Source: Candidatus Eiseniibacteriota bacterium (GTDB lineage Bacteria > Eisenbacteria > RBG-16-71-46 > JABDJR01 > JAWXBZ01). From it: 37,498 bases of DNA. Below are positions 9,032-37,498 of this stretch, one piece after another. Numbering within the stretch: the stretch's first letter is position 1; each line of letters begins with the position of its first letter. A model generated the notes under the pieces. That model saw only the letters and a program-made list of their open reading frames with translations, was not told where the DNA came from and searched no databases. Where the stretch lies: positions 1-37,498 of the forward strand of contig JAWXBZ010000196.1 of assembly GCA_034440375.1 (NCBI GenBank), given 5' to 3'. Position numbers and translations under genes: made by a program.

Positions 9032-9069
9032 GCGAGAATCCGGGGCGTCATCGACAGCGCGGCCGTCGA

Positions 9070-14750: not shown

Positions 14751-14757
14751 GTGCGGG

Positions 14758-14786
14758 ACGTTACGGTGGGCGGCGGGGAGCGTCAA
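14758..14786 (-). promoter_or_regulatory. sigma70 promoter of pyrE (probably leaderless mRNA)
   Basis: TTGACG, 17 bp, TAACGT, 7 nt, then ATG 14750; no SD sequence. Confidence 0.7.
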
Positions 14787-14804
14787 GATCATGGCCGCTC
14801 CGCA

Positions 14805-14813
14805 TGCTATCGT
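14805..14813 (+). promoter_or_regulatory. Extended -10 (TGCTATCGT) for the divergent S8 gene (probably leaderless)
   Basis: TG-C-TATCGT followed by 6 nt and ATG 14820; no SD. Confidence 0.55.
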
Positions 14814-14819
14814 TATGTC

Positions 14820-17753
14820 ATGATGCGAGTATTCTTTGCCTTTTCGATGGTTCTCGGCCTTCTGTTGCGCGCGGCGCCGTCAACGGCCCGAACCGAACCG
14901 TCGCTGATCCTCGAACTCGCGCCGGGCTCCTCTGCCCTCTCCCTCAAGGCTTTGGATTACGGGCAAATCGAACCGCTCTTTTCGGCACATCGCGATCCGC
15001 TTGATCCGCTCTCCCGATTTTATCGCCTGATTCCCGGTGGCGCCTGGACCGCCGGTTCGTCGTCGGCGGCCCTGTCGGTTCAACCGGGTGTCATTTCCGC
15101 TTCACCCGATCGGATATCGCCGCTGGCCGCGTGCCTGCCGAACGATTTCTATTTCGCGCATGACGAGCCTGATTCCGCCCAGTGGCCGCTCCATGCCAAT
15201 CCGCAGGGGCCCGACCTCGGAGCCATCGAGGCCTGGAACGTCACCACCGGCGATCCCGACGTCCTGCTGGCGGTTCTCGACAGTGGCGTCGACTGGCGTC
15301 ATCCGGAGTTCGGCCCACCGCTCTCACCGGCCGGACAGATCTGGGTCAACGCGGCCGAAGCCTCGGGGCAACCCGGCATCGACGACGACGGCAATGGTTA
15401 CGTGGACGACCTCCGCGGCTGGGACTTTGTCGATGTCGCAACCATCCAGGGCGAGATCAACCGGGTGGACCCGGCCGAGGACGGTCTCGTGCCCGACAAC
15501 GATCCGGTCGACTATGACGGTCACGGGACGTTCGTGGCCGGCCTCGCGGGCGCCGCGATGGACGACGGGGTCGGGATGGCCGGCCTCGCGCCCGGTGTCC
15601 GGCTCCTGCCGCTGCGGGTCGGCTGGCGAGAGGACTACATCGATCCCGGCACCGGTCGGCGTGTCAACCAGGGCGTGGTGGCCATGAGTTTCTGCGCGCA
15701 GGCGATCGTGTATGCCGCCGACAACGGCGCCCGTGTCCTCAACTGTTCGTGGCTCTCCGAAGAGACGCCCGAGTTGAAGGCCGCGCTCGACTACGCCATC
15801 CAGGTGAAGGGCGTCCTCGTCGTCGATGCGGCGGGGAATGGTGGACTCTCGACCACCCAGTCGCGCAACTATCTCAGCCGTCGCGGCGATTGTCTTGAGG
15901 TTGCGGCGCTCGACCGTACGGGCCAGCTATCCGGCGTGACCAGCATCGGAACCTGGGTCGATCTGTCGGCGCCGGGCGAAAAGCTTCTCTCGCTGGTACG
16001 AACCGGCGTGTCGCGGTTGTACCGGATCAATGATGCCGGTGCCACATCGTTCGCGGCTCCGTTCGTGTCGGCCACCGCCGCGCTGGTCCGTTCGGTGGCG
16101 CCGTTGATGACCCCGGCCGAGGTGCGGACGCATCTCATGGCAACGGCCCTGAACATTGATCACATCGGTCTGAACGGAAACCAGCTCTACCGGGGCAAGC
16201 TCGGAGCCGGAATGGTCAGTCCGGTCCGCGCCCTCCTGGCACTGGTGCCGGCGGTACGGGAGTCGATCGCGGCGCCTCTTGGCCCTGTGCCGCTGGTTCT
16301 TGCCGGGGCGGGGTTCGTCGCCGTCGATGTCCAGCGGCATCTGCTTGCCTGGGGCGATGGAACGGAATCCCGGACGCGACTGCCGCTCGATGGCGAGATT
16401 CGGGGCGTGGCCAGCGTCATGAACGGCTCATCCCGAATCGATGTGGTGACGCTTCGGGATGGTCACGTCGCCGTGCTCAAGGATGGTGCGTTCGCGCCCG
16501 GCTGGCCACGTCCTACCGGCGGCCTTCTGCTGGGCAATCCGATGATCGTGGAACTCGGCGGCGGAGCGGAGCCCGAAATCGTCGTGGCCGGTACCGACAG
16601 TCTTCTTTATGCCTGGTCGCTCGACGGCACCAGCCGTCCCGGTTTTCCGGTGCGGTTGCCCGATGCCGTATTGACCGCACCAGCCGCGGGCGATGTCATC
16701 CCTGGTGGCGCGATCGAAATCGTGGTCGTCACCGCCGATGATCGCGTGTCGATCGTGACCGCGGGTGGCGTGCGTACCGACTGGTCGAGTGCGAACCTGA
16801 CGCCGCTTTCGGCCGCCCGCTACGCCGCGCCGGCCCTGGCCGATGTGACCGGCGATGGCCGTCTCGATGTCGTGCTGACCGGGTCGGATCGCATCGGCGT
16901 TCTGCCGAATCCGGCGGGGGCGCAGGCGAGTGTGCTCTGGGTGTCGTTCCTGGGAGCGGACCCCATGGTGGGGGAAATTGCGGTCGCTGATTTTCAAGGC
17001 AACGGGCACTTCAGTGTGGTGACGACTCACGAGTCCGGAGGGGTGCTCTTGAGAGGCTTTGTCGCTCCCCCAGGAATCGTGGCCAACATCGAAGTTGAGG
17101 CATCCGGAACGCCGGCCACCGGAGCCATCCTCCTGGCCACTGACGACTCGAGCGAACCCGGAATCGTGATCGTAACCACGAACGGCTGCATCGAGGCCTT
17201 CCGATCGACCGGCGAGCGTGTGCCCGGCTGGCCGAAGCGCCTGTCGGCGGACGCCACCGGACGCGTGGCCGCCGGCCCCGACCTGGCGTCCAATACGATC
17301 GGCCTCGTCGTCGAAACGGCCGGTGGCGAGCTGCGCCGCTTCACGATCCCGAGCACCGATCCGATCGGCGACTCACCCTGGGGCATGGCCGGCGGCAATG
17401 CGCAGCGGACGAGGAGCCTGGCACCCACGCTTCCCACCGCGCCGGTCGATCCGGAAATTCCAGATGGAGGCCAGCGGCCGATCCAGTTTTCGGCCTCGCG
17501 CAACCCGGCCAGCGCCGGAACGCCCGTGGCTTTCCTGTTATCCGGGGGTTCCTTGACCGACCTTGTCATCCACGACATCCAGGGTCGCGCCGTTCGCCGG
17601 ATGCGTGTCGCCCCCAACGACAATCGCTCCGGCCTCCACTGGTGGGATGGTCGGAGCGATGACGGCCGGATTGTCAGTGCCGGGTTGTACCTCGCGCGGG
17701 CCCGGCTCGCCGACGGGGCCGTGCGAACGGCTCGCCTCGTCGTGGTCCGGTGA
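14820..17753 (+). CDS. Secreted S8 serine peptidase with FG-GAP-like repeats and C-terminal T9SS-A/FlgD-Ig-like domain
   Basis: Signal peptide from MMRVFFAF; AVLDSGVD (Asp), DDDGNGYVDD insert, GHGTFVAG (His), AAGN, ATSFAAP (Ser); repeats such as ADVTGDGRLDVV and PGWP; CTD RNP...HDIQGRAVR...WDGRSDDG...GLYL...RLVVVR. Confidence 0.9.
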   Translation: MMRVFFAFSMVLGLLLRAAPSTARTEPSLILELAPGSSALSLKALDYGQIEPLFSAHRDPLDPLSRFYRLIPGGAWTAGSSSAALSVQPGVISASPDRISPLAACLPNDFYFAHDEPDSAQWPLHANPQGPDLGAIEAWNVTTGDPDVLLAVLDSGVDWRHPEFGPPLSPAGQIWVNAAEASGQPGIDDDGNGYVDDLRGWDFVDVATIQGEINRVDPAEDGLVPDNDPVDYDGHGTFVAGLAGAAMDDGVGMAGLAPGVRLLPLRVGWREDYIDPGTGRRVNQGVVAMSFCAQAIVYAADNGARVLNCSWLSEETPELKAALDYAIQVKGVLVVDAAGNGGLSTTQSRNYLSRRGDCLEVAALDRTGQLSGVTSIGTWVDLSAPGEKLLSLVRTGVSRLYRINDAGATSFAAPFVSATAALVRSVAPLMTPAEVRTHLMATALNIDHIGLNGNQLYRGKLGAGMVSPVRALLALVPAVRESIAAPLGPVPLVLAGAGFVAVDVQRHLLAWGDGTESRTRLPLDGEIRGVASVMNGSSRIDVVTLRDGHVAVLKDGAFAPGWPRPTGGLLLGNPMIVELGGGAEPEIVVAGTDSLLYAWSLDGTSRPGFPVRLPDAVLTAPAAGDVIPGGAIEIVVVTADDRVSIVTAGGVRTDWSSANLTPLSAARYAAPALADVTGDGRLDVVLTGSDRIGVLPNPAGAQASVLWVSFLGADPMVGEIAVADFQGNGHFSVVTTHESGGVLLRGFVAPPGIVANIEVEASGTPATGAILLATDDSSEPGIVIVTTNGCIEAFRSTGERVPGWPKRLSADATGRVAAGPDLASNTIGLVVETAGGELRRFTIPSTDPIGDSPWGMAGGNAQRTRSLAPTLPTAPVDPEIPDGGQRPIQFSASRNPASAGTPVAFLLSGGSLTDLVIHDIQGRAVRRMRVAPNDNRSGLHWWDGRSDDGRIVSAGLYLARARLADGAVRTARLVVVR

Positions 17754-17761
17754 GCTTAAGT

Positions 17762-18169: not shown

Positions 18170-18270
18170 GGGGTTGATCCTCCTGATTTCAGAAAACGCG
18201 AAGTCGCGGATGAGTCGGCGGTCCGGCCAGGGCGGGACCGAATCGAATCGGTGCCAACTAGGGAGATGTC

Positions 18271-18287
18271 CGCAATGCGCATGCCAG
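18271..18287 (-). promoter_or_regulatory. sigma-54 (-24/-12) promoter for the FN3 lipoprotein
   Basis: Minus strand CTGGCATGCGCATTGCG versus consensus YTGGCACG-N4-TTGCW, exact GG-N10-GC spacing, ~100 nt upstream of the start codon. Confidence 0.7.
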
Positions 18288-18418
18288 CCGCGGGCCGCTT
18301 GGCCCTCCGATGAGCAAGAGACGTCCAAGTCACCTGAAGCAAAGCGCTTGAGCTGGGTTCCCTCACCCATTTTCGAGATGATTTTCGATGGAGAATCCCG
18401 GAGTTGCGGGGCGAATTG

Positions 18419-18454
18419 GCGCAAGCTGCACCAGGGGCCCATGCAATCTGCACG
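18419..18454. promoter_or_regulatory. Tandem imperfect palindromes; candidate enhancer-binding protein sites
   Basis: GGCGCA-agc-TGCACC and ATGCA-atc-TGCACG; cores GCAAGCTGCAC (18421-18431) and GCAATCTGCAC (18443-18453) are 22 bp apart, ~135-165 bp upstream of the sigma-54 site. Confidence 0.4.
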
Positions 18455-18470
18455 GATCGAGCGGGGTGGC

Positions 18471-25199: not shown

Positions 25200-25202
25200 C
25201 CT
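25173..25202 (+). promoter_or_regulatory. sigma70 promoter embedded in the accA 3' end
   Basis: Consensus TTGACA (25173-25178), 18 bp, TAGCCT (25197-25202); predicted start ~25209-25210 coincides with the 5' end of a long stem. Confidence 0.6.
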
Positions 25203-25209
25203 CATCACC

Positions 25210-25409
25210 GTCGGGGCTCCATTGTGTCGCCCCGCGCCGACCTGGAAAGACCTGCCCCACAGGAGCCTTCACCTATCGCATCTGGCTAAGGGTCACTGCC
25301 TGAACGGAAAGACCGGCGCCATTCCCGGAAGCTCAGGTGTGCCAACCGCGACCCATGACCAGCGCGACCACACTCTCTACGTCCGGAGGGGTGGCCTCGG
25401 CGTCCCGAC
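25210..25409 (+). ncRNA. Candidate ~200-nt structured non-coding RNA (6S-like rod or unknown motif)
   Basis: Manual pairing: GTCGGGGC 25210-17/GTCCCGAC 25402-09; GTCGCCCC 25226-33/GGGGTGGC 25388-95; TCGC 25276-79/GCGA 25364-67; CTGG 25282-85/CCAG 25359-62; GGGTC 25290-94/GACCC 25350-54; CCTGA 25299-303/TCAGG 25333-37; CCGG 25313-16/CCGG 25325-28. Directly downstream of a promoter; no credible ORF. Confidence 0.5.
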
Positions 25410-25438
25410 TGTCACCATCAGCAAGGAGACGATGACCC

Positions 25439-25609
25439 ATGCCAAGCAAGGAATTGCTGGAGCTCCTGGCCTGCACGGCCTGCAAGGGGCCCCTCGATTA
25501 CCGTGAGTCGGAGCAGAAACTGATCTGCAGGAAGTGTGGCCTGTCCTACCGGATCGAGGACGATATTCCCAACATGCTTCTCGACGAGGCGGAAAAGACC
25601 ACAGGTTGA
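25439..25609 (+). CDS. Trm112-like (UPF0434/YcaR) small zinc-binding protein, 56 aa
   Basis: Own translation (below ORF track cutoff): MPSKELLELLACTACKGPLDYRESEQKLICRKCGLSYRIEDDIPNMLLDEAEKTTG; AAGGAG upstream. Confidence 0.93.
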   Translation: MPSKELLELLACTACKGPLDYRESEQKLICRKCGLSYRIEDDIPNMLLDEAEKTTG

Positions 25610-28600
25610 TGATGCACCGGAACGACGGTCCGCGCCCCCCGGTGGCCATTGGTGCGGGGATGTTTCACGCTTTGTGGCGCCGTGGCCTGGCCGCGACGTT
25701 CGGGACGCCGCTTCTCCTGATCGTCGGGTTGCACCTCGCAATCGCTGATGCGGTCGCCCGTCCCGACGACATGATTCGGGAAACCCCCGCCTCCGCCACC
25801 GGCGTGTCGTTCCGCTATATACCACCGACTCCCCGAATCCTCGACTTCGAGGGGGGCAAACCGAATCAGCGCACGATCGTCGTGGCCGATGCGGGCCTGA
25901 CCGGTGCCCTGCCGGACGACTGGATTTTGCCGGTTCACACGGCGCAGATTCTCGTCCCAGCGGGCCATGACTGGTCGCTCGATTTCCGAACGGTGTCCGG
26001 TTCGCGTATCGAGGATGTCTCCTTTGCGCGCGTGCCGACCGGTGGTCGTGCCGCGGAACGCGGTGCCGACAGCCCGCGATCGATTACCCTGGACGGCGTT
26101 TTTCCGGAATCACCGGTCACGGGATCGCTCGAGATCTACCGGGGTCGGACGCTCCTCCTCCTGACGCTGGCGCCGGTGCAGTTCGATCCCATCGACGGTA
26201 CGGCTACCACCTTCGAGTCGATCGAGGTCGATGTCCGATTCCATCGGCGCGCCGACGCCCCTGGCCGCGCCGTCCGGCCCTTCCCCACGGAATCGGCCGG
26301 GGATGATTTCTGGAAGGACCTGATACTGAACCCGGAGGCCCTGTCGGCCGACACCGGGGGCCCTCCATTGCGCTCCGAGCTGGTGGCTGCGGGAGCAGCC
26401 GGCTCGGGACGTCCGGATACCTATTTCGATGACGCGCCGATCTGGCTCAAGGTGGGGGTTAACGCGAACGGCATTTACCGCATCAACGCCGCGACCGTGA
26501 CGGCGGCTGGTGTGGACGCCCGCACCATCGATCCGGCCACGATCCGGATATTCGCCAATCCGGGGCCGGAACTGGATGAAGCCACGCACGAAGCCGATGT
26601 GCCGGCCTGGGGTGAGCGGGGTGGATTCCGCGAGCTGGCCATTCATGTCAGGGAGGGCGGTGCGTCGAACAGAACCTTCGAGGATGTGGACACGCTCCTC
26701 TTCTACGGACTGGCCATTGACAATTTCGGCAACACCTTCGATCCGGCCGGGAGCGCGGAATGGCTTGAGAATGAACACACCGGGACGAACGTCTACTGGA
26801 TGACCTGGGGAGGCAGTTTCCCGGCCGCGCCGCTGCGCATGGCCACCCTTCCGGGCGGCGCGCAAGGCGAGCCGGTCAACACCGTCCTCGAGCGAAGCCA
26901 CGTCGAGATCAACGACCCCGCCCTGTACGACCCGTTACCTCGTGAGCGGGGCGTCCGATGGGAAAAATGGTGGTGGCAGCGGATCGAGGACTCGGGCGCC
27001 AGCTATTTCTGGGACATCCCGCTTCCCGACATCGACACGACCCGGACGCTTTCCATGACGATCCGGTGGTGGGGTTCAAACACGCCGGCCTGGAGCGCAC
27101 AGGAACCAACGCAGCGCCATTTTCTCCGCGTGTCGGTCAACGACCAGCCGGAGATTGCAGCCACCTGGGGAGGCTTCCTCCAGGGGATCAGCCGGTACGA
27201 CATGGCGATTGCCGACCTGCCCGCCCGGACGACGAATCGTGTGATCGCCACGGTTACCGAGTTCGCGGGCGCCTCGTTGCGGATCGACCAGATACTCCTC
27301 GGCTGGATGGAGCTGGACTGGTGGCGGCGTCTCAGCCTCTCGGGTCAGCACCTGGCCTTCCGCGGGACGAGCGCGGCACCCGGACCGGTCACCTTTGAGG
27401 TGGCCGGCAGCGAGGGGGGTGCGCGGGTACTCGACGTCACCTCGCCCTGGGCGCCGGCGTTCGTCCCCGCCGGACGATTGGTGATTTCGGGCGTGGCCAC
27501 GCTGGCCTTCAACGTCGACGACCCTACCGGCCGCCGCTATGCCCTGGCCAATCCGGCGGGTATTCAGACGCCAATTTCCATTCAGCGGGACACGTTGCCG
27601 CAACGATGGCTGCGCGATGTCGACATGAGTGCCGACTATATCGTCATCACCGCGGATGAATTCGAGGGGAGCGCCGGCGACCTGGCCACCTGGCGCCGCA
27701 CACACCTCCGCGGCATCGCCAGCGACATGCCGGTCGGCCAGACGCCGCGCGATGCACGAACCGCCGTCGTGCGGGTGTCCGATATCTATGATGAATTTTC
27801 CGGTGGTCGACCCGACGTCGCGGCCATCCGAAATTTTCTGAAGTACGCCTGGCTCAACTGGGGATCCAGCCTGCCGGAGGATCGCCTGCGGTACGTCTGC
27901 CTCCTCGGAGATGCCAACCGTGATACCCGCGACCGCGAAGGGACCGGCGTCAGGAACCTGGTGCCGACCTGGGAAGGGGGCTATGACACGGCCACGATAC
28001 TTGATTCCAACCCGGCCTACGCCAGCGACGACTTCTTCGGCCGCTTTGACGGACCGGCCGACCGGATCACCGACCTGGCCATCGGTCGCATTCCGGTGGT
28101 CGACCCGGAGATCGCGGAGGATCTGATCCGGCGGAAGATCGTGGGCGTCGAGTCGTTCGACGGGTTCAATCCGAAACGGAATCGGGCCATCCTGGTGGCC
28201 GATGATGTCTGTCAGGCGGGGCGATCGGACCCGCTCGGCGTGACCCATATTCTGCAGACGGAGACCATCGATCGATACATCCCGAAGCAGTTTGACCGGT
28301 TGAAGATCTATCTCTATGACTACGGCCAGAATGACTGCTCACTCCTCTCCCGGCCGGGGGCCAAGCGCGACCTGATCCAGGCGATGAACGAGGGGGCCTG
28401 GCTGGTCAATTACATCGGTCACGGTGGCGACCAGGTCCTGGCCGACGAAAAGGTGCTGGAAACAACAGACGTCCCCTCGCTGACAAATCTTGAGGATCTG
28501 TCGGTGCTGGTGGCCGCCTCGTGCAGCGTCGGCAAGTTCAATCGTGCCGGGAGCGACGGGCTGGCCGAGGCCCTGGTCAAGTGGCCCAATGGTGGATGTC

Positions 28601-29886
28601 TGGGCGCGATCGCCGCCACGCACCTTTCCTTCTCGGGCGAGAATGAAGACCTGAATCGCCGCATTTTGCAGTTCCTGTTCCCGGGGGGGGACAACCGCAG
28701 CGTAACCCTTGGAACGGCGCTGCTGAAGGCCAAGATCGCCCAGACAATGACCACCAACTTCTGCTCCCCGACCGGCGATCTCGAGCCATGCGATCGACCG
28801 AAAAAGTATCTGCTCTTCGGCGATCCGGCGGCCGTGATCGTGGGCCCCAACGGCCAGATCCGGATAACCGAAGCACCGGATACACTGGATCGCGGTACGC
28901 TCGTCACGGTGCGCGGCGAAGTGATGCGCCCTGACTCGACCCGTGACGAGAGCTACCAGGGGATGATCGACCTCCTGGTCGAGGACCAACCGGACACGCG
29001 GCGGGCATTCGGTCAATCGGGCGCCGGCATCGGGGCTCCGTATGCCATCCCGGGCGCCACCATTTACAGTGGCCGGGCCGCCGTGACGGCCGGACTGTTT
29101 GAAGCCACGTTCGTCGTCCCGGTGTCGCTGCGCGGCGGGCCGAGGGGGCGGGTGCGTGCCTATGCGGCCGGCGGGGGGAGTGAAGCTGTCGGCGCCATCT
29201 CACCGCTCGCGATCGGCGGACTCGACGCCGATGCGCCGGGCGACACGACCGCTCCCAGCATCGTCATCAACGTCCCCGGCGGAACCATGGCGGCGGGGCA
29301 GGTCCTGACGATCAATATCGAGGATGACAACGGCATCAACCTGACCCGGCTTTTTGAATTTCGCTCGATCATCCTGACGTTCCTGGACGACACGGAACTG
29401 GAGCGATTCCGGGCCGACGTGACCGACGACTTCCAGTACGAAACCGGAAGTTACCGCCGCGGCATCGTTCAAACCCGCGTGCCAAACCTTCCAGGGGGGG
29501 CATACACGGTCCGCCTGACGGCCACCGACAACTTCAACAACCGCGGTGAGGCACGGCTGGCCGTCACGATCGGCACGACCGGTGGAGCCGGGGACTTGAC
29601 CGACCTTCTGGCGCTGCCCAATCCCTTCCAGGAATCGACCGAGATCACCTTCCTTCTGGCGGGAGCATCGCCCTCGGTGCGGGTGCTCGTCTATTCCGTC
29701 AGCGGCCGAAAGGTCCGGGAGTGGAACGTCGTTGGCCAGGTTGGGGAGAACCGGCTGGCGTGGGATGGCCGCGACGCGACAGGCGATGCCGTGGCCAACG
29801 GGGTTTACCTGATCAAGGTGGCCGCCCGACCCGCCGCCGGTGGCGACGAGATCGACTTGATCGAGCCAATCGTCCGCCTGCGATAG
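25609..29886 (+). CDS. porU: PorU-like C25 (gingipain family) sortase/transpeptidase with C-terminal T9SS-A/FlgD-Ig-like domain
   Basis: WLKVGVNANGIYRI, LLFYG, NVYWMTW, DYIVIT, IYDEFSGG.PD..AIRNFL, LLGD, SDDFFG, AIGRIP, catalytic NYIGHGG and AASCSVGKF, LFGDPA, DTTAPSI, ATDNFNN, CTD PNPF...YSVSGRKVR...WDGRD...NGVYL. Upstream of porV. Start 25609 (TGATG overlap) or 25660. Confidence 0.85.
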   Translation: MMHRNDGPRPPVAIGAGMFHALWRRGLAATFGTPLLLIVGLHLAIADAVARPDDMIRETPASATGVSFRYIPPTPRILDFEGGKPNQRTIVVADAGLTGALPDDWILPVHTAQILVPAGHDWSLDFRTVSGSRIEDVSFARVPTGGRAAERGADSPRSITLDGVFPESPVTGSLEIYRGRTLLLLTLAPVQFDPIDGTATTFESIEVDVRFHRRADAPGRAVRPFPTESAGDDFWKDLILNPEALSADTGGPPLRSELVAAGAAGSGRPDTYFDDAPIWLKVGVNANGIYRINAATVTAAGVDARTIDPATIRIFANPGPELDEATHEADVPAWGERGGFRELAIHVREGGASNRTFEDVDTLLFYGLAIDNFGNTFDPAGSAEWLENEHTGTNVYWMTWGGSFPAAPLRMATLPGGAQGEPVNTVLERSHVEINDPALYDPLPRERGVRWEKWWWQRIEDSGASYFWDIPLPDIDTTRTLSMTIRWWGSNTPAWSAQEPTQRHFLRVSVNDQPEIAATWGGFLQGISRYDMAIADLPARTTNRVIATVTEFAGASLRIDQILLGWMELDWWRRLSLSGQHLAFRGTSAAPGPVTFEVAGSEGGARVLDVTSPWAPAFVPAGRLVISGVATLAFNVDDPTGRRYALANPAGIQTPISIQRDTLPQRWLRDVDMSADYIVITADEFEGSAGDLATWRRTHLRGIASDMPVGQTPRDARTAVVRVSDIYDEFSGGRPDVAAIRNFLKYAWLNWGSSLPEDRLRYVCLLGDANRDTRDREGTGVRNLVPTWEGGYDTATILDSNPAYASDDFFGRFDGPADRITDLAIGRIPVVDPEIAEDLIRRKIVGVESFDGFNPKRNRAILVADDVCQAGRSDPLGVTHILQTETIDRYIPKQFDRLKIYLYDYGQNDCSLLSRPGAKRDLIQAMNEGAWLVNYIGHGGDQVLADEKVLETTDVPSLTNLEDLSVLVAASCSVGKFNRAGSDGLAEALVKWPNGGCLGAIAATHLSFSGENEDLNRRILQFLFPGGDNRSVTLGTALLKAKIAQTMTTNFCSPTGDLEPCDRPKKYLLFGDPAAVIVGPNGQIRITEAPDTLDRGTLVTVRGEVMRPDSTRDESYQGMIDLLVEDQPDTRRAFGQSGAGIGAPYAIPGATIYSGRAAVTAGLFEATFVVPVSLRGGPRGRVRAYAAGGGSEAVGAISPLAIGGLDADAPGDTTAPSIVINVPGGTMAAGQVLTINIEDDNGINLTRLFEFRSIILTFLDDTELERFRADVTDDFQYETGSYRRGIVQTRVPNLPGGAYTVRLTATDNFNNRGEARLAVTIGTTGGAGDLTDLLALPNPFQESTEITFLLAGASPSVRVLVYSVSGRKVREWNVVGQVGENRLAWDGRDATGDAVANGVYLIKVAARPAAGGDEIDLIEPIVRLR

Positions 29887-29952
29887 GGCTGGCCGGGATC
29901 GATCAGGCGGTTTCCGGAGATCCTTCCCCGGCTGGCCGGGGTACCGCGCGTC

Positions 29953-29961
29953 TGCTAGCAT
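29953..29961 (+). promoter_or_regulatory. Extended -10 (TGCTAGCAT), putative internal promoter for porV and downstream genes
   Basis: TGnTAnnnT ~100 nt upstream of ATG 30063. Confidence 0.5.
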
Positions 29962-30062
29962 AGTGCGGCAATTGAGGTTCCGAATTGGGAACCACGAAAA
30001 GTGGCGCCGGTACCACACCCGCCTGCCCCACCCCGGCCGATCATCCAACGGGAGGTTTTTCC

Positions 30063-31088
30063 ATGCCGTTTGCTCGTTTCCGACTCATGTACGCCCTTCC
30101 GGCCCTGTTGTCCCTGCTCCTGGTGGCCGGGTCGGCCCGGGCCCAGGGGACCGCTGGCGCCTACAGCCTGCAGATTCCGCCGGGCGCCCGGGCGGAGGGG
30201 ATGGGCCGAAGCTTCACCGCCATCGCCGACGATGCTTTTGCCCCCTGGTGGAATCCGGGCGGGCTGGCCTTCCTGGACGGCAAACATGCCGCGTTGATGC
30301 ACACCAAGCTTGTTCCGGATCTGGCGGACGACGTCTACTTTGAGTACCTCTCCTACGCCCAGCATCTTTCCGGTTGGGGCGGCATCGCGGCGACGATCAC
30401 CTACCTGTCGTACGGCGAGAGCCAGGCCACCGATCCGGGACAGGGAGATCTCGGCACCTTCAGTTCGTGGGAGATTGCCCCGTCGATCGCCATCGGCACA
30501 AGCATCACTGACAACCTCGGCCTCGGCGCGAATCTCAAGTATGTCCACCTCGACCTGGCGCCGGCCCTCTCTTCGACATCCGGCGAGGCCGGCAAGGGGA
30601 GCACCTTCGCGGTCGACCTGGGCGCTCTCTACCGGATTCCCGGCGCGCCGATCAACCTGGCGGTGGTGATTCAGAATCTGGGTCCGGACATTGCCCTCGT
30701 GGACGAGGAGCAGGCGGATCCACTCCCCCGGACGCTTCGCATCGGCGGAGCATGGCAGGCCCTCAGCAAGGAGGCCCACAGCCTCATCGTGGCTTTCGAT
30801 GCCGACAAGCTCCTGCTGGGTGACCAGGGGGGCGCGCCGCCCGACTCGACATTTCAGCCGACCTGGTTCGACGAGAACGAGGTCCTGTTGAACGGCGGCA
30901 TCGAATACTCCTACAACAAGCTCGTCTCCCTTCGAGTGGGCTACATCTTTGACGACCCGGGTGAGATCAAGGACTTCACGTATGGCCTCGGCGTGGCCTA
31001 TCGCGCGCTCTCGTTCGACTACGCCAGCATTCCGCAGTTCGAAGAACTGGACCGGGTCAGCAAGTTCTCGCTCTCGGTACGATTCTGA
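30063..31088 (+). CDS. porV: PorV/PorQ-family outer-membrane beta-barrel
   Basis: GGGAGG then ATG 30063; signal peptide; SLQIPPGARAEGMG, DDAFAPWWNPGGLA, NLGP, PLPRTLRIG, GIEYSY..LVSLRVGY, terminal Phe (SLSVRF). Confidence 0.88.
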   Translation: MPFARFRLMYALPALLSLLLVAGSARAQGTAGAYSLQIPPGARAEGMGRSFTAIADDAFAPWWNPGGLAFLDGKHAALMHTKLVPDLADDVYFEYLSYAQHLSGWGGIAATITYLSYGESQATDPGQGDLGTFSSWEIAPSIAIGTSITDNLGLGANLKYVHLDLAPALSSTSGEAGKGSTFAVDLGALYRIPGAPINLAVVIQNLGPDIALVDEEQADPLPRTLRIGGAWQALSKEAHSLIVAFDADKLLLGDQGGAPPDSTFQPTWFDENEVLLNGGIEYSYNKLVSLRVGYIFDDPGEIKDFTYGLGVAYRALSFDYASIPQFEELDRVSKFSLSVRF

Positions 31089-31089
31089 G

Positions 31090-34000
31090 TTGATTCGCAA
31101 GGTCATTCTGCTGCCGGCGGGTTTCTCGCGAGCCCGGCTGACGCTGGTATTAGTCGCCGGACTGGCGCTGGTCGGGGGAGACAGGGCGGCGGCCAGGGAG
31201 CCTGTCTTCCGTCTGTCGCACACCCCGTTAACCCCTTCCTCCGTTTCCCGACAGGAACGATGGAAGGGGTTTCCCTGTTTCATGGGAGCCGACGGCCACG
31301 CCATCACGTTGAAGCCGGGCGGCCCCGACGCCGGACGGATTCGTGCCGAATCCTTGAAAGACGCGCCCCTCCTGTTTGATGGATCAGGCGGCCCCGCCGA
31401 CGAGACGCGGCCGGCCGACCATGCGTCCCCGGCCATCGCCGCGCCGGGTCGCTTTGCCGCCACCGATATTGATACGCTTCGGGTGGCCATGATCCGAATT
31501 GATTTCGAAACGGACCGGAGCGGCGATTCGACAACCACGCCCGACGGTCGATTCGACCTGCGGACCGACCAGCTGCTCCCGGTCGATCCGCCGCCGCACA
31601 ACCGTAATTTTTACTCGGCTCATGGCCGCGCGCTGGCAAACTATTACCGGGCCCAATCCGCCGGCCATCTGGAGCTTGCCGTCGAGGTTTTTCCAACCGA
31701 TCCGGGCGCAGCCTACCGGCTGGGCGACACGGCCGATTACGGCCCCTGGTCGGTGGCGGCTGACAACGTGAATGTGGCCCTGGAGGCAGAAACGCTGATC
31801 AAGGATGCCCTCGGCGCCGCGTTCGCCTCCGGAGAGATCGACTTGCGTTCGTTCGATGCCTTCATCGTTGTTCATGCCGGCGCCGACTTTCAGAGTGACA
31901 TCAACTCGGATTCGCCGAATGACATTCCGACCTTTGTCCTGGAGTTCGGCGACACGGTTTTCGTCGGCGGCAAGCATATCGAACGCTGCATGGTCCTGCC
32001 TGAGACGACGACCCAGGATGGATTTTCCGGCGCACTGAACGGCGTACTGGCCCATGAGTTCGGCCACATCCTCGGCCTGCCCGACCTGTACAACGCCCGG
32101 ACTGGGCTGCCGATGGTCGGATTCTTCTCGGTGATGGACTCCGGGCACAATATCGGCGCCATCCTCGTCGACACCGATTCGACCGAGGTTGAAGTGATTG
32201 GTGTCCTGCCGTCGTCCTTCGATGCCTGGAGCCGGCTCCAGCTCTTTCTGTCGCCGGAATCGCCAGGTGGTGGATTCCTGGGATCGCGCATTGCCGTGGC
32301 CGAGGAATCGCTCGCTGTCGACCTCGGCGCGGTGCTGCTGGAACAGGAACTCATCTACTCCCCGATTCATGACAGCGAGTATTACCTGGTCGAGAATCGG
32401 GCGATCGAGCTGGACGGAAACGGCTTCCCGATCATTCGGGCCGATGCCATGACCGGCGTCATCCTGGGGCCCATCGCCGACTCGACGTTGTCGAATCCGG
32501 CCGGGGCCTTCGAATACGATGCGCTCCTGCCGTCCGGCGGCCTTCTGATCTGGCACATCGATGACCGCGTTATCTTCGGCGACCTGAGCGATCCGTTCGG
32601 CGTCAACACGAATATCGCCCGCCGCGGCGTCAAACTGGTGGAAGCGGATGGTATCGAAGACCAGGGTCGCCGTAACTTCGGCACGCCATGGGATCCGTTC
32701 TACGCAGGAAACAATTCGTTCCTTGGCCCGTTCACCCTGCCGGCCAGCACGACCAATGACGGCCAGTTCTCGCGAGTCGAGATCGGCACGATCTCGGAGC
32801 CCGGGGTCACGATGGAAGTGATCGTGCGGCGCCGGGCGGCGTTGGATGGCTGGCCAATCTTCCTGAACGACGCGATCACAATCACCTCGACCGGTCTGCT
32901 TGATGTGACCGGGGACGGCTCGCCGGAAATGCTCTTCACGTTCGGCTCGAATATCCTCGCGATCGAGGGACGGGGGGGGCGGCCATACCCGCCGCTCGAT
33001 GAGACCGGCCAGGCCCAAGCCTGGGTACGGGGACCCGCCGCGCTCGATCGGCGGCTGGCCTCCGGTGATATGTCGGATCCACGTCAGAAACAACCGTCCT
33101 CCCGAACGTCCTTCGTGGCCGCCCTCACGGCCGGAGCCGATCAGATCGTGGCCTGGGAGGCCGACGGAACTCCGATCGCGACCAGCACCGAGCGGCCGCT
33201 CCGCCAGGCCTCGACACCCCCGTCGGTGATCGCCGACGAACGATCGTTCGGTGCGTTTGGGCTGGCGTATGGCGGACAGGTCGGGCGGGTTCACCTTGCG
33301 GGCGGTTTCACACCGCTGGAACGCAAGGCCGACAGCGAAGCCTTCCAGTTCGACGGACAGCCGGACCCACCTTATGGAAACGTGGTCGCGGGGGCGTTGC
33401 GCGGGCCGACATCCTCGATCGAGGTGGCCTGGGCCACGGAGTCGGGTCGCGTGCATATCGCATCCGTTGACGCCACAACTCCTTCGAGCGGGCCCGATGG
33501 CACACGCCTCATGACGACAATCGGTTCGACGTCTTCGGCCGTGGGTGGCCGTCGGCGCCTCTCCCTGCTCGCGGCCGATTTCCGGGGAAGCGAACCAGGC
33601 GCCTATGATCTGGCTGCCGTCGACCGGACCGGCACGATCACGATGCTGGATATCGCTGGCACCACGCTGCCGGGGTGGCCGGTGGTTATTGGCGTTCCGC
33701 TCGTTGGCCACGCGGCGGCCGGCGATCTGGATGGTGAGGGGAATGCGGAACTGGTGGTCGCCGATACGCTCGGCGTCCTCACGGCCCTGAACGGGGATGG
33801 CACCATGGCGCTCCACTTTCCGGTCGCGCTCGGGTCGAAGCCGACGTCCGGGGCGATGATGGCCGATGTCGATGGCGAGCCTGGCCATGAAATCCTGTTG
33901 ATGACGGAGGACGGATCACTTCACGCCATCAATCGTGACGGGAAAGAAGCCCGCGGCTTTCCGATCGGACTGGGAGGCTACCGGATGGCAGGTAATTATC

Positions 34001-34470
34001 TCGCCGATCTCGACAACGACGGAAAAATGGACATTGCGGCCGGGTCGCCGGCCCATCTCCTTGCCGGATTCTCGACCGGACAGGCGATTCCGGATTCGAT
34101 GATTGCCTGGCGGGGTGAAGACAATGGACCGACGCGCAACGCGATCCTCGACCGACGGGTGGCCGGGGTTGGCCGGCGCACCGCACCGAGCGCCGAGGCG
34201 CAATCGCTGGTCTGCTTTCCCAATCCGGCCAGGGGAAATCAGATGAACTTCCGAATGACGCTGGCGGCCGGGCAATCAGCGGAAGCCAGTGTCTTTGATC
34301 TGGCGGGGCACCCGGTGGCGGCGGGGTTGTTGCCGATTGGGGGCGATCGGGAAGCCAACATCCCCTGGAACCTTCAGGATGTGGCACCGGGAGTCTACCT
34401 GGTACGGGTCGAAGTTTCGGGACCCGGGGCGCCGGGGAGCGTGGTACGCCTGGTTTCAGTGCTCAAGTGA
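31090..34470 (+). CDS. M6 (immune inhibitor A-like) metalloprotease with FG-GAP repeats and T9SS-A-like CTD
   Basis: Probable TTG start at 31090 giving a signal-like N-terminus; IVVHAGAD, AHEFGHILGLPDLY, SVMDSG Met-turn, EYYLVENR, GLLIWHID; FG-GAP GDLDGEGNAELVV, ADVDGEPGHEI, ADLDNDGKMDI; CTD FPNP...FDLAG...PGVYLVRV...VSVLK. Start uncertain. Confidence 0.87.
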   Translation: MIRKVILLPAGFSRARLTLVLVAGLALVGGDRAAAREPVFRLSHTPLTPSSVSRQERWKGFPCFMGADGHAITLKPGGPDAGRIRAESLKDAPLLFDGSGGPADETRPADHASPAIAAPGRFAATDIDTLRVAMIRIDFETDRSGDSTTTPDGRFDLRTDQLLPVDPPPHNRNFYSAHGRALANYYRAQSAGHLELAVEVFPTDPGAAYRLGDTADYGPWSVAADNVNVALEAETLIKDALGAAFASGEIDLRSFDAFIVVHAGADFQSDINSDSPNDIPTFVLEFGDTVFVGGKHIERCMVLPETTTQDGFSGALNGVLAHEFGHILGLPDLYNARTGLPMVGFFSVMDSGHNIGAILVDTDSTEVEVIGVLPSSFDAWSRLQLFLSPESPGGGFLGSRIAVAEESLAVDLGAVLLEQELIYSPIHDSEYYLVENRAIELDGNGFPIIRADAMTGVILGPIADSTLSNPAGAFEYDALLPSGGLLIWHIDDRVIFGDLSDPFGVNTNIARRGVKLVEADGIEDQGRRNFGTPWDPFYAGNNSFLGPFTLPASTTNDGQFSRVEIGTISEPGVTMEVIVRRRAALDGWPIFLNDAITITSTGLLDVTGDGSPEMLFTFGSNILAIEGRGGRPYPPLDETGQAQAWVRGPAALDRRLASGDMSDPRQKQPSSRTSFVAALTAGADQIVAWEADGTPIATSTERPLRQASTPPSVIADERSFGAFGLAYGGQVGRVHLAGGFTPLERKADSEAFQFDGQPDPPYGNVVAGALRGPTSSIEVAWATESGRVHIASVDATTPSSGPDGTRLMTTIGSTSSAVGGRRRLSLLAADFRGSEPGAYDLAAVDRTGTITMLDIAGTTLPGWPVVIGVPLVGHAAAGDLDGEGNAELVVADTLGVLTALNGDGTMALHFPVALGSKPTSGAMMADVDGEPGHEILLMTEDGSLHAINRDGKEARGFPIGLGGYRMAGNYLADLDNDGKMDIAAGSPAHLLAGFSTGQAIPDSMIAWRGEDNGPTRNAILDRRVAGVGRRTAPSAEAQSLVCFPNPARGNQMNFRMTLAAGQSAEASVFDLAGHPVAAGLLPIGGDREANIPWNLQDVAPGVYLVRVEVSGPGAPGSVVRLVSVLK

Positions 34471-34492
34471 CGCGAACAGGGGGGGGCAGATC

Positions 34493-35290
34493 GTGAAACG
34501 GCAACTGGTTCGAAACAACCGCTGGCTGTTCGCCGCATTGCTGTTTTTTGTGCCGTCCATGGCGGAAGCTGGCATGATGGATGCAAGAGTTCTGCGTGTG
34601 GGCGAGGATCGGCCGCTTTTGGCCCAGCGGGCGCTGGACGGACCGGAAACACCGGCGCCAGATGCCCGCCTGGACAGGGGCGACCCCCCACGCGTCAACG
34701 GGAAACGCTCTCCGGTACTGGCGGGTCTGCTTTCAATGGTGCTCCCCGGTTCCGGACAGTTCTACAATGGTAGTCGCAGCGGCTGGCTGTACCTCGGCAT
34801 CGAGGCGGCCGGCTGGGTCACCTACGCCAGCACCCGGGGCACCGGCCATGACATTGAAGCCCAGTACAAACGCTACGCGGACGCCCACTGGACCTTCGTG
34901 CGATACCGGGATCCGGGCTTCGAGGATTGCCCTGCCAATGGTCACTCCGACGAGGGCGTCCAGGACTCGACGTTGGTCCTCCTGTATGACACGCGGCGTG
35001 ATGACTACTACGAGGACATTGGAAAACTCGACATATACTCCTGCGGATGGGATGCAGCGGCCAATCGGGAGCACTATCGGGACATGCGGAACGAATCAAA
35101 CGACTTTCTTCGAACTTCACGAACCGCCGTCACGGTGGTGTTCTTGAACCACCTGGTCAGCGGTATCCTGGCGGCCCGTGGGGCGGCAAGATATAACGCC
35201 TCATTGCCGGGCGGTTCGGAGCTCGGCTTTCATCTCGATCCTTCCATCACGAATCCCGGCGCGGCCATGACCCTGAGCCGTCATTTCTGA
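34493..35290 (+). CDS. Conserved hypothetical envelope protein (DUF5683-like)
   Basis: GTG start at 34493 after a G-run; signal peptide; KRSPVLAGLLSMVLPGSGQFYNG motif; YYEDIGK...GWD; terminal Phe. Confidence 0.7.
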   Translation: MKRQLVRNNRWLFAALLFFVPSMAEAGMMDARVLRVGEDRPLLAQRALDGPETPAPDARLDRGDPPRVNGKRSPVLAGLLSMVLPGSGQFYNGSRSGWLYLGIEAAGWVTYASTRGTGHDIEAQYKRYADAHWTFVRYRDPGFEDCPANGHSDEGVQDSTLVLLYDTRRDDYYEDIGKLDIYSCGWDAAANREHYRDMRNESNDFLRTSRTAVTVVFLNHLVSGILAARGAARYNASLPGGSELGFHLDPSITNPGAAMTLSRHF

Positions 35291-35301
35291 CAGGAGTACT
35301 C

Positions 35302-36162
35302 ATGATCCGGCTTTCTGGATGTCTGCTGCTTCTTGCACTCATCAATGTGCCGACGGCGTCTGCCGATCTGGCGGTCTCACCGGCGACATCCCCGTTTACC
35401 CAGCCCGGTTTCTCGGGACGGTTGATTGCCCTGAATCAAATCGGCGGGACACCCTCCCGGCCTAAGGACGGTCCAAACGACCCGACACCCAGGACCCCAA
35501 ATGTGGTCAACCCGCGAAAGGCGATGCTCTACTCGCTCCTCCTGCCGGGACTCGGACAGCAGGTCGCCGGGCGAAAGGGACGGGCACGGGTTTTCTACGC
35601 CATCGAAGCGGGCATCTGGACCTCGTTCGCCATCTTTCGGGTCCAGTCTGACCAGCAGCAGGACCGCTATATTGAGTATGCGGAGTTCACAGCCGGCGCC
35701 GAGGCCTCCGGGAAAAATGACGAGTACTGGCGGACCCTGGCGCGCTACGAGCGGAGTGATCCCGGGCCGGGAAGTGCCAATGAATTCATCCGCCGTCAGG
35801 CCCGCGCCCTCTATCCAGGCGATCGCGCGGCGCAGGAAGATTACTTCGCCCGGAACGGCTACTTCGAGAACGAAACCTGGGACTGGCAGAATGCCGACAA
35901 TCTGGCCCGCTACCAGGGCCTCCGCAGCCGGAGCCTCGACTCCCGGGATCGGGCGGAGTTTTCGATTTTCGCGGCCATCGCCAACCGGGTGGTATCGGTC
36001 ATCGATGCGGCCCGCGTCGCTGGCCAGGCGAATCGTGCCGCCGCCCAGCCCCGCGGTGACACCGGGGGGGGCATTGGCAATCCGCTCCAGCACCTTGGTT
36101 TCAAGATGAAGAAAGACGGCGATGATCGTATTCCGATGGTCACCTGGAAAATGAAGTTCTGA
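35302..36162 (+). CDS. Conserved hypothetical envelope protein (DUF5683-like), paralogue of the upstream gene
   Basis: AGGAG RBS; signal peptide; NPRKAMLYSLLLPGLGQQVAG; WDW; AAIANRVVSVIDAA; terminal Phe. Confidence 0.75.
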   Translation: MIRLSGCLLLLALINVPTASADLAVSPATSPFTQPGFSGRLIALNQIGGTPSRPKDGPNDPTPRTPNVVNPRKAMLYSLLLPGLGQQVAGRKGRARVFYAIEAGIWTSFAIFRVQSDQQQDRYIEYAEFTAGAEASGKNDEYWRTLARYERSDPGPGSANEFIRRQARALYPGDRAAQEDYFARNGYFENETWDWQNADNLARYQGLRSRSLDSRDRAEFSIFAAIANRVVSVIDAARVAGQANRAAAQPRGDTGGGIGNPLQHLGFKMKKDGDDRIPMVTWKMKF

Positions 36163-37127
36163 TTCACCGAACCGCGTCCGTTCTCGCGGTCGTGCTTCTT
36201 CTTGTCGGCCTGAACTCCTGTGGCGGTACCGCGGTGCGCGTGGCCGCCGACCCGCCCACCCATCCCTCATCGGGGGCGATTCGGATCATTGGTCGGCTGA
36301 CACCTCCCCCCGGCGAAGGTCGATTCACGCCAACCTTCCTCGCCGTCGATCCGAAAGGCCGGCTCCTGGTGGCGGACGAAGCCCGTGGGGCCATCTTCGC
36401 CTACGACCGGCCGGAAGATCCGCCCATCGGCTGGCTGGCTGCGCCGATCGGCCAATCGGGCGGATCGCCGCGCTTCGTCGACATTCGCGGGATGGTGGCT
36501 TCCGCCGGCCTGAACCTGTTTGTCCTGGACGGTGGCACGGGGCGCATCTACCAGTTCGACCTGTCCTACGAGGCCCGCGGGCTGGTTCTTGACCTGGCGG
36601 GCGAGCGATTGGTTTCGCGCTTTGGTGACATCCGGGCGACGGCCTTGGCGATCGATCCGAGCGGCCAACCGATCGTGGTCGACGCGGCCGGCGACCGGCT
36701 TCTCGTTTTCGATCCGCAGTGGTCACCCCGCTTTGACCTGGGCGGCCCCGGCGCTTCGGCCGGTGGCTTCCGCGATCCGGCCGGCGTGGCCATCGGTCCG
36801 GGCGGACGGATCTGGGTGGCCGACCGGGGCAATCGCCTGGTATCGGTTCTCGATCCGGTCGGAGCCTTCCTGGTCGAGCATGAGTTTGACCACGCGCCGG
36901 AGTCGCTGGCGATCGATTCGTCCGGGAATGTCTACGTCGGCGATGCGGCCGGAGTCGTCACGATACTCTCTCGGGATGGTGGGCGAGCGACCATGCCGCC
37001 GGGCCGGGCGGGTGGCGGCACGGCCTATGTCGCTCTCAGCCCGGACGGGCGGCGTCTGTTCGTGGCGAGGCCGGTGGCGGGAATCGTCGAGGTTTACGAG
37101 GTGGTCCCCGCCGCAATGAAACCATGA
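36159..37127 (+). CDS. NHL-repeat (beta-propeller) lipoprotein
   Basis: Repeats FTPTFLAVDPKGRLLVAD, FRDPAGVAIGPGGRIWVADRGN, PESLAIDSSGNVYVGD; lipobox-like LNSC. Start GTG 36192 or CTG 36159. Confidence 0.8.
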   Translation: MIHRTASVLAVVLLLVGLNSCGGTAVRVAADPPTHPSSGAIRIIGRLTPPPGEGRFTPTFLAVDPKGRLLVADEARGAIFAYDRPEDPPIGWLAAPIGQSGGSPRFVDIRGMVASAGLNLFVLDGGTGRIYQFDLSYEARGLVLDLAGERLVSRFGDIRATALAIDPSGQPIVVDAAGDRLLVFDPQWSPRFDLGGPGASAGGFRDPAGVAIGPGGRIWVADRGNRLVSVLDPVGAFLVEHEFDHAPESLAIDSSGNVYVGDAAGVVTILSRDGGRATMPPGRAGGGTAYVALSPDGRRLFVARPVAGIVEVYEVVPAAMKP

Positions 37128-37498
37128 ACCGCCCGGACGCCCTTGCCGGGCTCCTGCTTCTGGCGACAATGATCGGTCCATCCTCCGCGGCCGGCGCCGG
37201 GCCATTGCGCCACGATGTCGCGGTCATGCCCCTCGACCGGGCTGTGTGCGTCGGTCGTCGCTTCCTCGAATCAGGCAGCGACAGCCTGACGCTTGCCGGG
37301 AGGCCGCTCCGGCGGGGCATCGACTACACGATGGACGCCGCACAGGGATGCTTCTTCCTGCTGCCGTCGGCCTTCCCGGATTCGTTGCCGCCACCCTTCA
37401 CCCTGGTGGTCTGGTATCGCCCGCTGCCGTTCCAGTTCGAACCGGTGTATGCCCGCCGCGACCTCACCCGTGGCAGCGGCGACGTGGCCCCGCCGGGA
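37124..37498 (+). CDS. 5' part of a secreted/outer-membrane hypothetical protein (runs off the right edge)
   Basis: Own translation: ATG 37124 overlapping the previous stop (ATGA); MNRPDALAGLLLLATMIGPSSAAGAG...FLESGSDSLTLAGRPLRRGIDYTMDAAQGCFFL...VWYRPLPFQF; open to window end. Confidence 0.75.
   Translation, partial: MNRPDALAGLLLLATMIGPSSAAGAGPLRHDVAVMPLDRAVCVGRRFLESGSDSLTLAGRPLRRGIDYTMDAAQGCFFLLPSAFPDSLPPPFTLVVWYRPLPFQFEPVYARRDLTRGSGDVAPPG

Follow-up and report, generated by a model that had tools for sequence, protein, structure and literature searches.

A PorU-PorV gene block with a DUF5683-like pair and a giant-barrel gene in an Eisenbacteria-like bacterium: a candidate outer-membrane module of a T9SS-type system

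Almost all work on type IX secretion systems (T9SS) concerns Bacteroidota, in which a huge SprA barrel is the translocon and PorU, PorV, PorZ and PorQ form the attachment complex. Contig JAWXBZ010000196.1 of a Candidatus Eiseniibacteriota genome (GCA_034440375.1), whose 37498 nucleotides are referred to below as the window, closes with seven tightly packed genes on the plus strand that occupy 25534-37498, up to the window end (Table 1). They begin with porU and porV and continue with genes for an M6-like metalloprotease, two DUF5683-like proteins (p4 and p5), an NHL-repeat protein and a protein, p7, that is cut off by the window edge. What are porU and porV doing in this company, and in what kind of organism? 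We hold with moderate confidence that the block encodes an outer-membrane sorting and attachment module of a T9SS-type system, with lineage-specific partners, in an Eisenbacteria-like bacterium. Its composition suggests a differently built version of the T9SS machine. Passages of reviews and of a 2025 Nature paper place T9SS and SprA in the Fibrobacteres-Chlorobi-Bacteroidetes (FCB) superphylum, so T9SS genes outside Bacteroidota are not new in themselves. No description of this block was found in literature searches on Eisenbacteria with T9SS and on DUF5683, other papers being judged by title or abstract.

PorU, PorV and the proteases with sorting tails

An initial annotation of the window had listed porU, porV, an M6 gene, two paralogues, an NHL gene and one further gene, and all of these were found on the plus strand with much the same coordinates. 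The position from which it had begun porU, 25609, is an in-frame ATG. The open reading frame (ORF) opens at 25534, and ATG 25660, which precedes a signal-peptide-like sequence, is the likelier start. The porV ORF opens at 29985 with ATG 30063 as the likely start, so that porV begins 99-177 nucleotides downstream of the porU stop, depending on the start codon. From porV onward the genes are separated by 13, 22, 11 and ~29 nucleotides, and the last two overlap by 4 nucleotides. The family scores of the block proteins lie far beyond chance.

PorU exceeds the cut-offs of both NCBIfam NF033707, 'T9SS sortase PorU' (519.8 bits, cut-off 420), and Pfam Peptidase_C25 (246.6 bits, cut-off 23), and aligns to Porphyromonas gingivalis PorU (6za2_A) at E=3.3e-44. 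In this alignment the His of its 'YIGHGG' and the Cys of its 'AASCSVG' pair with 'YAGHGG' and 'TATCDFA' of 6za2_A. We take the GHGG His and the ASC Cys to be the catalytic residues of C25 peptidases, and PorU is a predicted C25 sortase with an intact catalytic dyad. Its own C-terminal tail reaches 37.2 bits with FlgD_ig (above 27) and 21.9 bits with TIGR04183 (below 23). The PorV protein scores 227.3 bits with NF033709, the PorV/PorQ family (cut-off 90), and matches the solved PorV chain 6h3i_F at E=6e-19. Both equivalog cut-offs are missed (NF033710 PorV, 138.7 bits vs 250; PorQ, 83.9 bits vs 220), and by these scores the protein appears closest to PorV rather than PorQ.

The M6-like protein matches Pfam Peptidase_M6 (39 bits, above 22) and FG-GAP_3 (28.4 bits), has an intact HEFGH motif at residue 318 and carries a weak sorting tail (TIGR04183, 21.6 bits vs cut-off 23). 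Its best NCBIfam match is NF052323, 'T9SS-dependent M6-like inactivated metalloprotease', which has the companion models NF052324 PorU2 and NF052325 PorV2. The score of 214.7 bits is well under the cut-off of 600 and, unlike the proteins that this family describes, the window protein keeps HEFGH. For these two reasons we place it among M6-like proteases outside the inactivated equivalog and, since HEFGH is retained, regard it as probably an active enzyme. An S8 protease encoded further upstream matches Peptidase_S8 (130 bits), FG-GAP_3 (30.8 bits) and, less well, FlgD_ig (17.6 bits, below 27). The tails of PorU, the M6-like protein and the S8 protease all display motifs that we take to be of the 'PNP' and 'G.Y' types. 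Cargo-type proteins with predicted C-terminal sorting domains are present in the window.

Taken together, these genes resemble the PorU-PorV(-PorZ-PorQ) attachment complex of P. gingivalis and Flavobacterium johnsoniae, in that a PorU with the C25 dyad is followed by a PorV-family barrel and neighbouring proteases bear T9SS-type tails. The window differs from that complex in its lack of a PorZ or PorQ equivalog and in a PorV below its equivalog cut-off. Here, moreover, porUV sits among DUF5683-like, NHL lipoprotein, giant-barrel and Omp85-family genes.

Linkage of the block across candidate phyla

Using a p5-family profile, we fetched 66 loci from species-representative genomes (one per species) and annotated them by tblastn of the window proteins and by local profile searches. 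The order PorU-PorV-(M6)-p4-p5-NHL-giant barrel-Omp85 recurs in contigs of Eisenbacteria, Latescibacterota, Krumholzibacteriia and Zixibacteria. A tandem pair, p4-like then p5-like, is present in 30 of the 66 loci, and 3 further contigs begin inside p5. Given the pair, PorV lies upstream on the same strand in 22 of the 24 loci with at least 2.4 kb of upstream sequence; the two others are L032, where the contig ends inside the M6 gene, and L038, which has another arrangement. PorU stands before PorV in 19 of these 22 (L002 is cut, and L028 and L030 have gcvPA instead). M6 matches were found in 15 loci, the M6-like gene lying between PorV and p4 in Eisenbacteria, Zixibacteria and several others; it is absent from 14 loci of Latescibacterota/Krumholzibacteriia type, where p4 follows PorV directly. 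By tblastn, which gives a lower bound, an NHL homologue follows p5 in at least 19 loci. The p7 family is found downstream in 24 of the 29 loci with downstream room, and an Omp85-family gene comes after p7 in 21 of these 24, the remaining 3 contigs ending there. Beyond the Omp85-family gene the neighbours vary (M16-like peptidase, HutH/HutU, LigA or DinG), which gives the block a right-hand boundary. The block occurs widely among Eisenbacteria, Latescibacterota, Krumholzibacteriota and Zixibacteria, and the linkage of the downstream genes to porU and porV, on which the initial annotation had made its proposal depend, is borne out by this synteny across several candidate phyla.

A second arrangement, PorV-M6-like-X-p4(-p5) with unrelated flanks, is seen in five loci (L028, L030, L044, L064, L066) and in part in two more (L032, L055). 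The protein X has ~1000 residues and combines Peptidase_MA with a PD40 propeller. In the Gemmatimonadota locus L038 (8-5663), an X-like PD40-propeller protein that scores 23.9 bits with Omp85, just short of the cut-off of 24, precedes a p4-like/p5-like pair, which a tail-bearing HExxH protease follows; a PorV-family gene lies on the opposite strand ~6 kb downstream. Among the locus homologues of the M6-like protein that aligned across the motif, HExxH is retained in 7 of 10, in addition to the window copy, and is lost in L028 (2759-5920), L030 and L032 (LLMGS / SNVGS). The loss agrees with the 'inactivated' M6-like model NF052323, against which the L028 protein scores 552 bits, close to the cut-off of 600; its gene is directly 3' of the PorV-family gene. 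Because the gene holds its place beside porV even where HExxH is lost, its product may be an integral component with a structural as well as an enzymatic role, rather than plain cargo.

DUF5683 genes also occur as single copies, in a ParA-ParB-DUF5683-SLT/LysM context in Bacteroidales and in an S1-MiaB-like-(DUF512)-x-TruA context in loci labelled Chitinophagales or Chlorobi. In the single-copy loci with full flanks (L024, L027, L031, L033, L037), no PorU or PorV was found within 10 kb. Four contigs labelled Bacillota (L048, L053, L059 and L062; Coprococcus, Anaerovoracaceae, Firmicutes, Lachnospiraceae) nevertheless carry a DUF5683 'PGLG' gene. One of them, L053, clusters with Bacteroidales in the tree described below, and the four are likely mis-binned.

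Some further observations concern individual loci. In three Zixibacteria-type loci (L029, ~3384-4979; L035, 3187-5883; L042, ~3862-5703) the PorV-family gene contains an insert of ~570 residues that separates the N-terminal part from the barrel part; the L035 ORF comprises 898 residues, with a weak 'Reg_prop' propeller match. The contig of L011 (CAWGCC010000021.1) is labelled 'uncultured beta proteobacterium' yet carries the block. Its dnaE, accA, p4 and p7 are split over several frames, and it looks like an error-rich assembly with a doubtful label. Shortly past the block in L004, an ORF (16644-17942) weakly matches the RNA-guided endonuclease IscB (50.6 bits, cut-off 175).

The DUF5683-like pair, the NHL protein and the giant barrel

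The products of p4 and p5 are 28% identical to each other (BLASTP, E=4e-13). With Pfam DUF5683 (gathering cut-off 26.7), p5 passes at 29.3 bits and p4 fails at 22.3; the profile of the p5 family picks up p4 at E=1.8e-22, and that of its own family at E=4.2e-79. The two proteins share a signal peptide, a tail of low complexity and, at the C-terminus, a pair of strands that mostly ends in an aromatic residue (...SRHF in p4), and both carry an invariant motif, 'S..(L/V)PG.G', inside hydrophobic stretches. In a maximum-likelihood tree of 80 DUF5683-like rows, from which L011 and all rows with an alignment of less than 120 residues were excluded, a single branch (99/95) splits the p4 and p5 types, each of which spans several phyla; the type labels come from best-profile assignment, and the split is to that extent circular. 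The tandem pair appears to be an anciently duplicated set of DUF5683-like proteins.

The predicted model of p5 (predicted local distance difference test score, pLDDT, 80.7, core above 90) has short hydrophobic helices at 71-80 and 84-88 and long helices at 92-131 and 198-247, with a small helical insert between the long helices and a low-confidence C-terminal hairpin ending in F. The N-terminal tail is disordered, residues ~20-60 having pLDDT below 60. Comparison of the model with PDB folds gave no match at E<=0.001, and a Bacteroidales DUF5683 protein had no sequence match in the PDB. Nothing on the function of DUF5683 was found in the literature, judged in part by passage, title or abstract; one paper naming it is, by its title, about nematode receptors. 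The P. gingivalis DUF5683 protein PG0140 appears in the table of an outer-membrane-vesicle proteome.

The available sections of a preprint of October 2026 (bioRxiv 10.64898/2026.10.03.756453), the only paper among the 10 listed in which LptT has the sense of the lipopolysaccharide (LPS) translocon, describe LptT as a highly unusual outer-membrane subunit of the Bacteroidota LPS translocon, bound to the LptD barrel at its lateral gate. The protein features two long transmembrane helices, two short hydrophobic helices that enter part-way from the periplasmic side and a long N-terminal periplasmic tail. The same sections state that LptT conservation extends from Bacteroidota to 6 of 7 other FCB phyla, that FCB phyla contain paralogues and a tandem fusion, and that the genes of the LPS translocon are genetically unlinked except for lptQ-lptR. 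With two long and two short hydrophobic helices and an N-terminal tail, the p5 model closely fits this text description, from which we infer that DUF5683 may be LptT. The two differ in that diverged tandem paralogues stand beside porV here instead of an unlinked single gene, in that p4 and p5 have a C-terminal hairpin ending in Phe that goes unmentioned in those sections, and in that the partner barrel would by analogy be p7, not LptD. If DUF5683 is LptT, the pair at the side of porV would be a specialised, anciently duplicated LptT-like pair; by the same analogy p4 and p5 would dock on a large barrel, for which p7 is the obvious candidate. The initial annotation had proposed that the downstream genes might replace PorZ and PorQ. 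Nothing tested links them to either role, and the DUF5683-like pair looks LptT-like rather than PorZ/PorQ-like when the p5 model is set against the published description in those sections.

The NHL protein matches Pfam NHL at 66.2 bits, and a lipobox-like 'LNSC' motif precedes its mature part. In at least 15 of 19 homologues a hydrophobic stretch runs up to a Cys (10 by pattern, 5 by eye), and we regard the protein as a probable lipoprotein. Its start is uncertain: the GTG at 36192 leaves only ~9 residues ahead of the lipobox-like Cys, and an in-frame CTG (36159-36161) or ATT (36162-36164), spanning the p5 stop codon, would yield a normal signal peptide. A non-canonical start and translational coupling are suggested by this.

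The p7 fragment matches its family profile (A2) at E=7.8e-24 over profile positions 10-117. It shares 59% identity with the beginning of a long L001 ORF, whose full-length protein ends in ...RAYF. This protein has 62 homologues, 61 of 1014-1207 residues and one of 683, for which there is neither a precomputed Pfam domain nor a functional name. In an exhaustive profile search, E<=0.001 was reached by 6461 representative clusters and E<=1e-30 by 2729; the 150 with the best scores are 892-1265 residues long. An AlphaFold model of a family member (pLDDT 81.4, predicted template modelling score 0.72) is almost wholly beta, with 40 strands of at least 8 residues between residues 175 and 1146, a total of long strands rather than of barrel strands.

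Several comparisons point from this family to SprA. TIGR04189 (SprA) is matched at E<=0.01 by 30 of 35 p7 members, the best at 1.9e-10, over a small module; the top PDB match of the family profile is SprA (6h3i_A, E=2e-4); hhalign aligns p7 with a 2114-residue SprA_N protein at 90.7% probability over 55 columns; and SprA chains take the first three places among Foldseek matches of the model in the PDB (best E=3.7e-9). Among named Atlas clusters the nearest, at 0.87, is of the SprA family, which we treat as a lead only. The p7 protein of L004 had no meaningful match among PDB sequences. The resemblance to SprA/Sov, the 36-stranded T9SS translocon (PDB 6h3i, 8gl8), consists in a giant single-chain outer-membrane barrel, which for p7 is a model, in a common ~55-residue module, 'GSE.V.LDG..L.RG.DY.IDY', and in gene position, p7 lying in one block with porV while SprA binds PorV in the solved complexes. 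By its model p7 appears to be a giant barrel of the SprA size class, and it falls short of the SprA family cut-offs. The statement in the initial annotation that no sprA is recognisable in the window thus stands in so far as no window protein reaches the SprA/Sov cut-off of TIGR04189, but the last ORF begins a giant-barrel family that resembles only SprA, and that weakly.

In related loci, outside the window, the Omp85-family gene after p7 encodes ~540-620 residues with POTRA repeats and an Omp85 barrel, as in TamA and BamA. It differs from both in score (81-116 bits vs 297 for BamA; 31 vs 625 for TamA). A weak ShlB match (28.2 bits) raised TpsA/TpsB two-partner secretion as an explanation for p7 and the Omp85-family gene, which was rejected because p7 models as a barrel ending in an aromatic residue. 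LptD was likewise rejected as an identity for p7: there is no LptD family match, and LptD ranks below SprA in Foldseek.

Upstream of the block the window contains dnaE, a small ORF and accA, with pyrE likewise among the upstream genes. This neighbourhood is rich in secreted and envelope peptidases, namely a giant subtilase, the S8 protease, an M23 peptidase and SppA. A promoter and terminator scan of 24900-37498 gave counts not above those in shuffles.

Table 1 Features of the window and their coordinates
Feature	Position	Strand	Basis
porU, predicted C25-type T9SS sortase with a putative sorting domain at its own C-terminus	25660..29886	+	NF033707, Pfam C25, 6za2_A
PorV/PorQ-family outer-membrane barrel, apparently closest to PorV	30063..31088	+	NF033709, 6h3i_F
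M6-like metalloprotease with FG-GAP region and T9SS-type C-terminal domain	~31102..34470	+	Pfam M6, FG-GAP_3
p4, DUF5683-like (LptT-like) paralogue A	~34493..35290 (ORF opens 34289)	+	DUF5683 below cut-off, and profiles
p5, DUF5683 (LptT-like) paralogue B	35302..36162	+	Pfam DUF5683
NHL-repeat beta-propeller, probable lipoprotein	36192..37127	+	Pfam NHL, 'LNSC'
p7, first 125 codons of a ~1150-residue predicted giant outer-membrane barrel protein, ended by the window edge	37124..37498	+	family profile
Probable cargo, S8 protease with FG-GAP repeats and T9SS-type tail	14751..17753	+	Pfam Peptidase_S8
Subtilase, >1748 residues, incomplete at window start	2-5245	-	
ABC sugar-type transporter operon; binding protein DUF3798 (383 bits)	5317-10311	-	
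SppA, 800 residues	10957-13359	+	
M23 peptidase	18039-20543	+	
dnaE-(small ORF)-accA, upstream of porU	20608-25199		

Readings of the block

If the block is a sorting and attachment module, its parts could work together as follows. Proteins with sorting domains would cross the outer membrane and then pass to PorV, and PorU would cut off the sorting domain and attach or release the cargo, by analogy with Bacteroidota. The p4 and p5 proteins would be LptT-type helical outer-membrane proteins docking at the side of a large barrel, with the NHL lipoprotein as periplasmic partner; together with p7 they would form an outer-membrane complex that serves the PorV/PorU step. The giant barrel p7 would be either the exit channel, as a compact SprA-type translocon, or the anchor of the complex, and the Omp85-family protein would assemble it.

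A number of results weigh against this proposal. Family models for PorK, PorL, PorM, PorN, PorW, PorT, PorZ and PorQ found no equivalog in the 37.5-kb window, which for porK/L/M/N agrees with what the initial annotation had reported. In five loci (L028, L030, L032, L035, L038) p7 and the Omp85-family gene are missing from the block. Since the loci were sampled via p5, the count of 22 in 24 measures PorV given the pair, not the pair given PorV, and many of the loci come from related Krumholzibacteriia and Latescibacterota species. The equation of DUF5683 with LptT comes from a text description in the preprint sections. The SprA sequence signal of p7 is confined to the one ~55-residue module. 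In 9 and 7 of the 35 members this module also matches phage tail proteins. Family members score 20.8 and 22.9 bits against the TIGR04189 cut-off of 200, Pfam finds nothing in them, SprA_N included, and the first member, P0088, matches no NCBIfam family. Foldseek TM-scores to SprA are 0.25-0.26, with TonB-dependent receptors, SlpA and LptD ranking close behind. A search for longer relatives of p7 gave 2 weak matches among the 3000 candidates scored, one of which carries SprA_N at E=1e-4. At ~1150 residues p7 has half the size of SprA (2403 in 6h3i_A) and would lack most of its extracellular mass. An Atlas cluster 0.99 similar to p7 is labelled mostly Bacteroidota, from few records, which would argue against p7 replacing SprA.

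The alternative that survives best holds that the block is an inherited neighbourhood, in which an ordinary porUV pair has its translocon and motor elsewhere and the downstream genes serve envelope biogenesis, encoding paralogues of LptT in an enlarged LPS/lipoprotein translocon, an Omp85 protein like TamA and its large barrel client. It draws on two genes with no known connection to secretion, dnaE and accA, which keep their position upstream of porU in many of the loci discussed here. L004, L005, L011-L014, L019, L021, L023, L034 and L041, labelled Eisenbacteria, Latescibacterota and Krumholzibacteriia, share the order dnaE-(small ORF)-accA-porU. Because these unrelated genes are kept in place as well, conserved order alone is weak evidence, and part of the synteny may be inherited through shared ancestry rather than selected, a further point against a dedicated module. 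The sequence similarity between p7 and SprA is minimal, single-copy DUF5683 genes stand in housekeeping contexts, and LptT is, in the preprint sections cited above, a conserved LPS-translocon subunit with paralogues in FCB phyla. However, the block stays intact while its right flank varies, and PorV-M6-like-X-p4(-p5) reappears between different flanks, with neither accA nor PorU present, in L028, L030, L044, L064 and L066; these two observations argue for a functional tie. The tandem pair, moreover, keeps company with PorV, whereas full-flank single copies stand apart from it; the LPS-translocon genes are, by the same sections, unlinked save lptQ-lptR; and p7 has no LptD family match. An inherited neighbourhood appears to us rather unlikely.

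The most far-reaching form of the module reading would make p7 a compact SprA-type translocon in a self-contained, one-block secretion-and-attachment machine, with the LptT-like pair at its side opening, the NHL protein underneath, PorV as shuttle, PorU as sortase and a dedicated Omp85 factor. We consider this form doubtful. If it were true, the block could be a stripped-down or ancestral form of the outer-membrane part of the Bacteroidota T9SS.

The origin of the DNA bears on all of these readings. Eisenbacteria lie near the FCB group; NCBI places the phylum under 'Bacteria candidate phyla'. The search for p5 homologues returned 86 proteins, the few named ones being Candidatus Eisenbacteria P0009 (74% identity) and P0046, Krumholzibacteria P0071 and 'bacterium' P0056, and the Atlas cluster nearest to p5 carries mostly the label Candidatus Eiseniibacteriota (16 records). 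Named p7-family homologues comprise two from Eisenbacteria, one from WOR-3 and two labelled 'bacterium'. In the tree, the window p4 and p5 each group with L001 and then with the Eisenbacteria-labelled L002/L004 (100/99 and 100/97 support). The nearest named homologues and the tree grouping agree with the non-Bacteroidota source that the initial annotation had suspected. That the block is a fragment of a canonical Bacteroidota T9SS, brought in by mis-binning or recent transfer, is highly improbable: PorU does pass NCBI's annotation model, and the related loci L030 and L028 are labelled Cytophagia or plain 'bacterium', but guanine-cytosine content stays at 63-67% from one end of the window to the other and shows no step at the block, PorV falls under an equivalog cut-off trained on Bacteroidota, the nearest named homologues are from Eisenbacteria, and dnaE-accA-porU recurs in Eisenbacteria, Latescibacterota and Krumholzibacteriia contigs that include CAVXKA010000003.1 of 976 kb (L004) and the 3.2-Mb chromosome OY970173.1 (L013).

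The giant barrel and the Omp85 gene, the parts of the block that hold most interest, are situated at the window edge or past it. The block ties PorU and PorV to a half-size giant barrel, a helical pair and an Omp85 protein over several candidate phyla. It thereby provides a concrete parts list for the export and attachment of sorting-tail proteins outside Bacteroidota, and it gives a context to a large uncharacterised family of outer-membrane proteins, that of p7. If the sorting and attachment reading is true, LptT-like helical outer-membrane proteins would gain a role beyond the LPS translocon.

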